The position numbers are program-made. From assembly GCF_030013205.1 (NCBI RefSeq), contig NZ_CP122648.1: a stretch of 64,000 bases of DNA; one strand, written 5' to 3'. Positions 9,001-12,000 of this stretch are shown here, piece after piece. The stretch is from Escherichia coli (GTDB lineage: Bacteria > Pseudomonadota > Gammaproteobacteria > Enterobacterales > Enterobacteriaceae). Every line of letters starts with the position of its first letter. Positions within the stretch are counted from its first letter, which is position 1.

Positions 9001-12000
9001 CAGAACCCCAGCAGCGTATCTGCCCCTGACGTATGCCCCAGCGCCAGCAGCGAATCAATCGCAACAGCGGTACGTTTCGGGCAACTCAGAGCATGGACAA
9101 AGTGCAGGAGTGGCGAGGCGAAATATCCTTGCGCGGCATAACGTAAATAACTGACGCTCACCGCTGTGGTAACGAGTTGAAGATTGTCGGAACAGGCAAA
9201 AAACTGGCGACCGGAGCGCGTATCTAAAGCGCCATAATACCAGGCCGCCAGCAGCATTCCGCTCAGCGTGTCATCATGACTCGGCGTTAATCCCGGACCT
9301 TTGCCCAGCCAGTGCCGCCAGTCGGTCTTCACGCCATTGAGCGCGGCCTGAAAACAGTGGCGAAACTGGCGTAATTCAGCAGGAAGCGGATCGCCTGCCG
9401 CCAACGCCAGTGGCCCGAAAAGCCCGGTTTCCTCCGCGCGTTGCATCCATGCAGCTGCAAGCGGTTGAGGATGCGCAGGCGGCGTAATACGCAGCAAACA
9501 ATAACGCTGTGGCTGTTTAACCGTGAAACGTCCGAGGCGAATCCCTTGTGCCACAACCTGCGGTTGTTCATTGCCGCATAATCCACCGCATAACGCATCG
9601 AATTGCGCGCGGCGAAGCACCCATCCTCCGGGGCCGAAACCACTACCCTGACGATGCAGTGTTAACAATTCACCGCTTTCCGTCATCAGGTTAATCGCCC
9701 GCCGCCACACGCCCGCTAACCGCCAGGACTGGCGATAATTCGGTGCACTACGGCTGGCAAGCAGAGGATGGATGATCGTCATTGTGCGTTCCTCAACCAA
9801 TCCCCATGCTTTCAGCCAGTGCTTCCAGCGCCTGTTCAAAGCACGCCAGCGGTGCCCGCACAGTGCCTGCGCCAATCTGCCCGATCCCCGCCTCTTTATG
9901 GGCGATACCGGTATTGATGAGTGGCGTAATGCCGGTTTCTACCACGCGACGAATATCCAGCCCCAGGCACGCGCCCTGAAAATCCCAGCCGGGGATCTGC
10001 AACTGCATATTGCGTTCAAGGAAGATTTCCGCCATCTCTTCAGATACCGCTCTGGCCGCTTCCATGCCACCCGCACCGACAAAGCGCGTTACGCCAGGCG
10101 CTGCGATCATCGCCGCACCTCCGATACCAAAGGTTTCGGTAATTGCGCTATCGCCCATATCCGGGTTCGCCTGCTCCTGCGAGAAACCGGTGAAAAACAG
10201 ACCTTGGGGAGTGTTTACAGGCGCAGTAAACCAGCGTTCGCCCAGCCCGCTGACCCGAATCCCGAACATATTGCCGTTGCGGGTCATAGCCGTGACGATG
10301 CTGCCTGAGCGGATCATCGCGCCAGCATCCATCGCCGCCTTGCAGTAGGCCATCGCGAGGTTGAGGAAGAACTGATCGGTCACGCTGAGGAAATCCATCA
10401 CTTCCGCAATGTGCTGTTTATCATGATCGAGGCGAGCAATTTGTGGGGCCAGCGTACGCATTAACAGTGCTGAGGAAGCAATATTGCGTTGATGGAACTC
10501 ATCGCCCATGGTAATGCCCTGCGCCATCATCGCGGTGAGATCGATACCGCGCTCCATGCGCCCCAGCGCCGCGCTTAATACTGGCATTAACACATCGCGC
10601 ATCCAGCGATGGCGAGTCAGGACATCTTCGCCGTAAGCGCCAAAACGCATCACTTTGCCGATACCTTCGTTGAGGTTGCAGTACGCCCGGTTGCCGTCGG
10701 TCACGTTCTCGACCACCAGCATCGGCATACTGGCAGAAGTAATGCCGCCCATTGGCCCGACGGCATTCACATGGTGACAAGGAATGAAGTTCACTTCCCC
10801 CTGATCCAGCATTGCCAGCGCCTGCGCTTCATCTTTCGCCCAGCCTTCAAACAGACATGCGCCCACACATGCCCCTTTCATGGGTCCGGTCATCTCCTGC
10901 CAGCACATTGGCGGCCCGGCGTGAAGCAGTGTTTTGCCCTCGTTTAGTTCGCTGATAAGTGAAGAAGCCGGTTGCACATCCAGCCAGTGTGGACGAGCAC
11001 GACGAATTTGTTCGATAACCGCAGCATTGGCTTGCGCCACTGATGTAAACATGGGAACCCCTTATTGCAAACGTTCTAATAAACGAGCCAGTTTTTTATT
11101 GCCGCCGGCGACTGGCGACCATTGGTAATGCACAACCGGTTTGCTGGCGCTTTGTAGCGCCAGCGCAAAGCTGCGTAATCCGATGTTAATCACGGCGACG
11201 TTTTCCAGTAATGACGGTGTGTGTTGCTGTGTGGCAGGCGAGAGCGGATGAATTAACGCTGCCGCCAGCAAGGTGGCTTCCGGCAGCGAACTCACGACCG
11301 CGATCCCCGCATCTTCCAGCGTGGCGATTTGTTGCGAGCGGCATTGCGGGTCACGTTCGGTGCCTGTCACCGTGGCAATGGCATACAGTGGTTGATTGTC
11401 TGGACGCGCGGCACAGGCTTTTTGCCAGGCGCTCACCAGCGAGGCGGCAGGATCGGCAGTCGCACCGAAGCCAATCACGACATCAAGCAGCAACACGCGC
11501 ACTTGCGGTTTAGCGCCGAGATCGGCAATTAACAGGTTGCGTAAGGTCGGGTCGATCATCGGATGGGGACGCCCGACGGTGTAAAAATCATCGCCCAGGT
11601 CGAGGATCTGATGTCCGTCGGCGTCGAGCATCATGCCATGTTGATGGGTATCGTCGGCTTCCACGCCAAGGTGTCCGGCAAGTAATCCCGCCGCTTCAGC
11701 AGCCAGCGTACCGCCGGTATACAAACCGCAAATAAATCCGCTGCTGACAGGTGCTATTGCGTTACGTCGCGCCGTGACGCGTGAAAGCAGGCAAGCCAGG
11801 CGTGCGGCCTCATCAAGCGAGGAGGCAAACCAGACATTCTCGTCGCGGGCCACCGCCGGGGTATAACCTAAAAACAGCGCCACCGTCGGTTTGCCAGTTG
11901 CTTTCATGGCATTAACAATTTTCAGACGCACAGCTTCGGCAGGTGGTTTTGAAACAAATGCCAGCACTTCGCTTTTCTCGTCTGCGCTGAGCATTTCCAG

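Follow-up and report, generated by a model that had tools for sequence, protein, structure and literature searches.

Does the uninterrupted ylbE gene carried by this Escherichia coli genome set the strain apart from K-12? The initial annotation of the window (the whole 64,000-nucleotide stretch analysed here, from contig NZ_CP122648.1) reported ylbE as an intact gene and, taking the K-12 copy to be a frameshifted pseudogene, proposed that the operon around it is probably fully functional in this strain. We addressed this by reading the locus directly, by aligning it to K-12 records and to other complete genomes, and by setting it beside published work on the pathway.

The ylbE gene and its operon

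The ORF listing of the window contained a single ORF exactly at 9793..11052. It lies on the minus strand, opens with ATG and has 419 codons before the stop. Its minus-strand translation ran from M to one terminal stop without internal stops. Thus, the coordinates and codon count given initially were right, and the internal frameshift that might have been misread was absent from the translation. No strand had been given for the gene. Stops occur throughout the plus-strand reading of this interval, and the gene is therefore on the minus strand. The ORF is ylbE, currently named allG, and the RefSeq annotation of a near-identical strain, K_EC180, places ylbE at the same coordinates.

The window YlbE matched the profile of Pfam family PF06545 from position 1 to 215 of 215. 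It scored 326.5 bits (E = 8.8e-98), where the curated gathering threshold is 27. We took the AllG family assignment from Pfam, where this entry, formerly DUF1116, is currently named 'Oxamate carbamoyltransferase subunit AllG'. No family in NCBIfam release 20.0 matched YlbE or YlbF, and recent PGAP annotations give their products as 'YlbE family protein' and 'AllH family protein', respectively.

The gene order put forward initially, fdrA, ylbE, ylbF and a carbamate kinase gene (ybcF), was confirmed on the minus strand (Table 1). FdrA has CoA-binding and CoA-ligase domains, like the alpha subunit of succinyl-CoA synthetase, and YbcF matched the Pfam amino-acid-kinase domain. The junctions are short: a 9-nt gap between fdrA and ylbE, a 10-nt gap between ylbE and ylbF, and a 4-nt overlap (ATGA) between ylbF and ybcF. 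Such spacing is typical of a translationally coupled operon, and suggests one here. The allFGHK order, the tight spacing and the divergence from allDCE are all present in the window. We conclude that the window ylbE is almost certainly an ordinary, intact gene of the core genome, the second in the allFGHK operon.

Table 1. Coordinates of ylbE and of associated features in the window.
Feature	Position	Strand	Description and basis
ylbE / allG CDS	9793..11052	-	AllG subunit of oxamic transcarbamylase, PF06545; ORF, Pfam, alignment to MG1655, K_EC180 annotation
G5 run, ylbE nt 252-256, codons Q84-G85-E86	10797..10801	-	three-way alignment and direct sequence reading
fdrA / allF	11062..12729	-	555 aa, intact; NCBIfam NF004760, 1039 bits; Pfam PF02629 and PF00549
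ylbF / allH	8967..9782	-	271 aa, intact; Pfam PF11392 AllH, E = 1.4e-29
ybcF / allK, catabolic carbamate kinase	8077..8970	-	297 aa, intact; NCBIfam NF006926, 612 bits
Divergent allD-allF intergenic region, allF operon promoter	12730..13045	.	316 bp; comparison with K-12
allD, allC, allE	13046..16148	+	all intact; oxalurate supply through ureidoglycolate dehydrogenase
glxK, ybbY, allB, allW, glxR, hyi, gcl, allR, allA, allS	16278..28018	.	all intact, collinear with K-12

A broken pathway gene elsewhere in the regulon was considered and rejected: allW is annotated as frameshifted in K_EC180, but the window allW (20225-21679, minus strand) is intact and encodes 484 aa. The window has T7 at about 20250-20256, against T6 in K_EC180. 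Over the first 50 kb, the window and K_EC180 (from pig faeces, Korea) differ by 2 mismatches and 5 single-base gaps, and these five gaps may reflect homopolymer errors made in assembling one of the two sequences.

The frameshift in K-12 records

In the current MG1655 reference, NC_000913.3, ylbE (b4572, YP_009029994.1) is a 1260-bp CDS at 548357..549616 without a pseudogene flag, and the resequenced MG1655 record LR881938.1 likewise carries it intact. The initial annotation had named an intact MG1655 copy as the observation that would count against its contrast with K-12, and this is what the current record contains. The belief that ylbE is a pseudogene in the MG1655 reference is therefore outdated. 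As the current MG1655 gene is intact, an uninterrupted copy is the normal state and does not single out this strain.

Where, then, does the frameshift lie? In the W3110 record NC_007779.1, ylbE is 1259 bp long and annotated as 'frameshifted'. A three-way alignment with the window showed that W3110 ylbE differs from that of NC_000913.3 in two respects only, a synonymous G114A change and the loss of one G from a run of five. This alignment, the approach proposed initially for locating the lesion, placed it at ylbE nt 252-256, where W3110 NC_007779.1 has G4; the G4 allele reaches a stop at codon 87. The window reads GGGGG at 10801..10797 (minus strand), the same G5 as NC_000913.3, and it also has G114. 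It therefore lacks the G4 by which the legacy frameshift allele is recognised. That legacy 'pseudogene' allele, present in W3110 NC_007779.1 and described for the old MG1655 reference, shares its locus and flanking genes with the window, and the two differ in that the legacy allele combines G4 with the synonymous G114A whereas the window combines G5 with G114.

The same pair of differences is found in the literature. The old MG1655 reference was reported to differ at ylbE by one SNP and by the insertion of one nucleotide, through which a stop codon is lost (PMC4759930), which are the two differences that separate W3110 NC_007779.1 from NC_000913.3, and ylbE has been counted among the lesions of the old MG1655 reference (PMC3045373). 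EcoGene noted that U00096.2 had minor sequence errors that were to be corrected in U00096.3, with ylbE not named (PMC3531124), and EcoCyc describes the record as updated in 2013 (PMC5210515). We are highly confident that the 'K-12 pseudogene' amounts to a one-base loss in the G5 run, limited to K-12 records that are legacy or superseded. The frameshift in W3110 NC_007779.1 is probably a legacy sequence error, and not a real strain difference. At present the W3110 RefSeq locus (positions 3582-4840 of the extracted NC_007779.1 region) keeps both G4 and G114A, while other K-12 derivatives have G5.

A search of 5,426 complete E. coli genomes with a 90-nt query, for which a 100% match including the K-12 flanks was required (so that G4 in other lineages falls outside the count), recovered the exact G4 allele in four of them: W3110, CIT, LIM and CAR. 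For the last three, the match had the record coordinates seen in W3110, consistent with records derived from K-12. By comparison, the 90-base query aligned to 91 record bases in MG1655, C600, J53, ER1709 and ME8067, as fits G5.

If K-12 ylbE were truly inactivated, the window strain would be special in keeping a working oxamate branch. The persistence of the frameshift in the W3110 RefSeq record speaks for this, as do older papers that treat ylbE as one of the lesions in the MG1655 reference (PMC4759930, PMC3045373). Against it stand the intact copies in NC_000913.3 and LR881938.1, the G5 run of other K-12 lines and the correction of minor U00096.2 errors in U00096.3 described by EcoGene, although ylbE went unnamed there (PMC3531124). 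The behaviour of MG1655 itself also argues against it. Wild-type MG1655 turned 19.5 mM allantoin into 17.7 mM oxamate, this conversion depended on allG, with single deletion of allF, allG or allH abolishing oxamate formation from allantoin, and AllG cloned from MG1655 DNA was a full-length 46-kDa protein (PMC11326118). We consider a true inactivation in K-12 to be extremely unlikely, and a functional loss of ylbE there is refuted by the current reference annotation together with the MG1655 phenotype. This phenotype makes K-12 functionally ylbE-positive, and leaves the window strain without special status. A practical consequence is that pipelines and annotators relying on legacy records such as NC_007779.1 will count every other strain as having a 'restored' ylbE.

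Five-base runs are short for phase-variable tracts. This argues against a second reading of the lesion, in which slippage at the G5 run would switch ylbE between on and off states in natural populations. That reading draws on the fact that the sole lesion known from K-12 affects one base of this very homopolymer. The exact G4 allele with K-12 flanks occurred only in the four genomes above, however, all of them K-12 records, and we regard the chance that the run acts as a switch as practically negligible.

Complete E. coli genomes carried ylbE at a coverage of at least 80% in 5,417 of 5,426 cases. The gene is thus predicted to be intact in nearly every E. coli genome, as judged from coverage and the G-run site and not from reading frames. 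A natural example of loss of function is found in AR_0085 (NZ_CP029741.1; 4294-5959 of the extracted locus), in which an internal deletion has joined fdrA, truncated at its 3' end, to a ylbE truncated at its 5' end, beside intact ylbF, ybcF and allDC. Real loss of ylbE occurs but is rare.

Differences from K-12 in AllG and in the allF promoter

The window ylbE aligned to MG1655 ylbE without gaps over 1260 nt, with 97.5% nucleotide identity and 412 of 419 amino acids identical. MG1655 AllG (b4572, YP_009029994.1; Kim et al. 2024, PMC11326118) is, like the window AllG, a PF06545 protein of 419 aa, and its locus shares with the window the allF-allG-allH-allK order, the short junctions and the divergent allD neighbour. 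The two differ by seven substitutions in the protein (R50C, I81M, E83D, A200T, A249S, Y344F and S355G) and by 2.5% in the gene at the nucleotide level. Codon differences numbered 25 synonymous and 7 non-synonymous, a ratio that fits purifying selection on the gene.

In a 16-sequence AllG alignment that included 14 other homologues from Enterobacterales and Orbaceae, all seven differences fell in variable columns, with none in columns that were invariant or at least 90% conserved. The window residue at five of the seven positions was also found among the 14 homologues. R50C is a non-conservative change, though in a variable column.

Seventeen complete genomes carried the exact window ylbE allele; all came from pigs, and O139:H1 and ETEC strains were among them. 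Alleles of strain 042 and others were 99.8% identical to it, and those of most other E. coli, including K-12, about 97%. The 2.5% divergence from K-12 fits this closeness to 042 and the pig isolates. Judging from these alleles, the lineage of the window is some distance from K-12 and close to 042 and pig isolates.

The divergent allD-allF region upstream of the operon has the same length as in K-12, with 0 indels and 8 substitutions. According to PMC12535856, AllS and ArcA bind and activate the allF promoter, through fragments defined there as -203..-144 for AllS and -142..-83 for ArcA. Placed by fragment position, these correspond to window 12873-12932 (60 bp) and 12812-12871, respectively. 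Six of the substitutions lie in the AllS fragment and two in the ArcA fragment. None falls in the proximal 82 bp, which include the ribosome-binding site and are identical to K-12.

Could these changes impair the operon in this lineage, or alter its regulation? Seven amino acid differences from K-12 AllG, among them R50C, and six mismatches in the 60 bp of the -203..-144 fragment would be the grounds for thinking so. However, each of the seven protein positions is variable in the 14 homologues, the 25:7 codon ratio fits purifying selection, the exact allele is fixed in the 17 pig genomes and nearly identical in 042 and others, and the proximal promoter is that of K-12. An impaired or differently regulated operon therefore appears very improbable. 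There is a similarly slight chance that the AllG and promoter variant of the pig-associated/042 lineage tunes the oxamate branch to a flux or regulation that differs from K-12. If so, the variant could be, for example, an adaptation to purine-rich gut niches, a matter of minor interest.

The predicted pathway and other features of the window

AllFGH is the oxamic transcarbamylase and AllK a carbamate kinase (PMC11326118, PMC9843812). The purified AllF-AllG-AllH proteins are active, interconverting oxamate plus carbamoyl phosphate and oxalurate plus Pi (PMC11326118); the allFGHK genes are co-transcribed, and YbcF is the carbamate kinase (PMC9843812). Published work also places the start of transcription upstream of allF. 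All of the cited enzymology and regulation experiments were done in MG1655.

On this basis the window genes would act as follows. AllD would oxidise ureidoglycolate to oxalurate. In the anaerobic oxamate branch, AllFGH (EC 2.1.3.5), with AllG as a subunit in complex with AllF and AllH, would convert oxalurate and phosphate to oxamate and carbamoyl phosphate, and AllK would turn carbamoyl phosphate and ADP into ATP, NH3 and CO2. The allF operon would be activated by AllS and ArcA and transcribed from upstream of allF.

We strongly infer that the window AllFGHK does the same as the MG1655 enzymes, because AllG is 98% identical to that of K-12 with substitutions at variable columns only, because the codon ratio fits purifying selection, because the promoter region is of K-12 length with its proximal 82 bp identical, and because the neighbouring genes are intact. 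The initial proposal that the operon acts downstream of allantoin degradation is thus supported by published work (PMC11326118, PMC9843812) and by the intact genes, while the functional contrast with K-12 that accompanied it falls away. Taken as a whole, the explanation of an intact, ordinary allG in what would be a working allantoin pathway, with the K-12 lesion limited to legacy records, is in our view nearly certain on the sequence comparisons made here. As the function of AllG was settled experimentally in 2024, a wild isolate is expected to carry the gene intact. Published work already covers the gene together with its function and regulation, as well as the history of the K-12 'pseudogene'.

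Two further comparisons concern the AllG fold and reaction. The only structural relative of AllG is PDB 3CLQ (Enterococcus faecalis V583), a conserved, uncharacterised protein, and our model of AllG reached moderate confidence. Classical transcarbamylases (ATCase, OTCase and the YgeW family) share the reaction type, carbamoyl transfer to or from carbamoyl phosphate.

Beyond the allantoin genes, the window contains several other elements. An Rhs element lies at 29294-34881, downstream of mnmH/ylbG, and its minus strand is open for 1,408 aa (30655-34881); in the K_EC180 annotation the RHS core is given as frameshifted or incomplete, with small orphan ORFs after it. The Rhs content of the window differs from that of the K-12 rhsD region. 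Between ybbJ and cueR, an insert of low GC content (0.435) at about 43900-46320 encodes a YadA-family autotransporter adhesin and three hypothetical proteins. Directly beyond cueR are a type I secretion permease/ATPase and an HlyD adaptor (47902-50067 and about 46725-47900), which adjoin an open stretch of 4,643 aa (50068-63999, minus strand) that runs off the end of the window. The K_EC180 annotation gives this stretch as a giant 'Ig-like domain-containing protein' with an incomplete pseudogene flag. GC content in this region is about 0.60-0.62, compared to about 0.51 for most of the window. From its gene content and composition, the 46725-63999 region looks like an island carrying a giant adhesin that would be secreted by the type I system.
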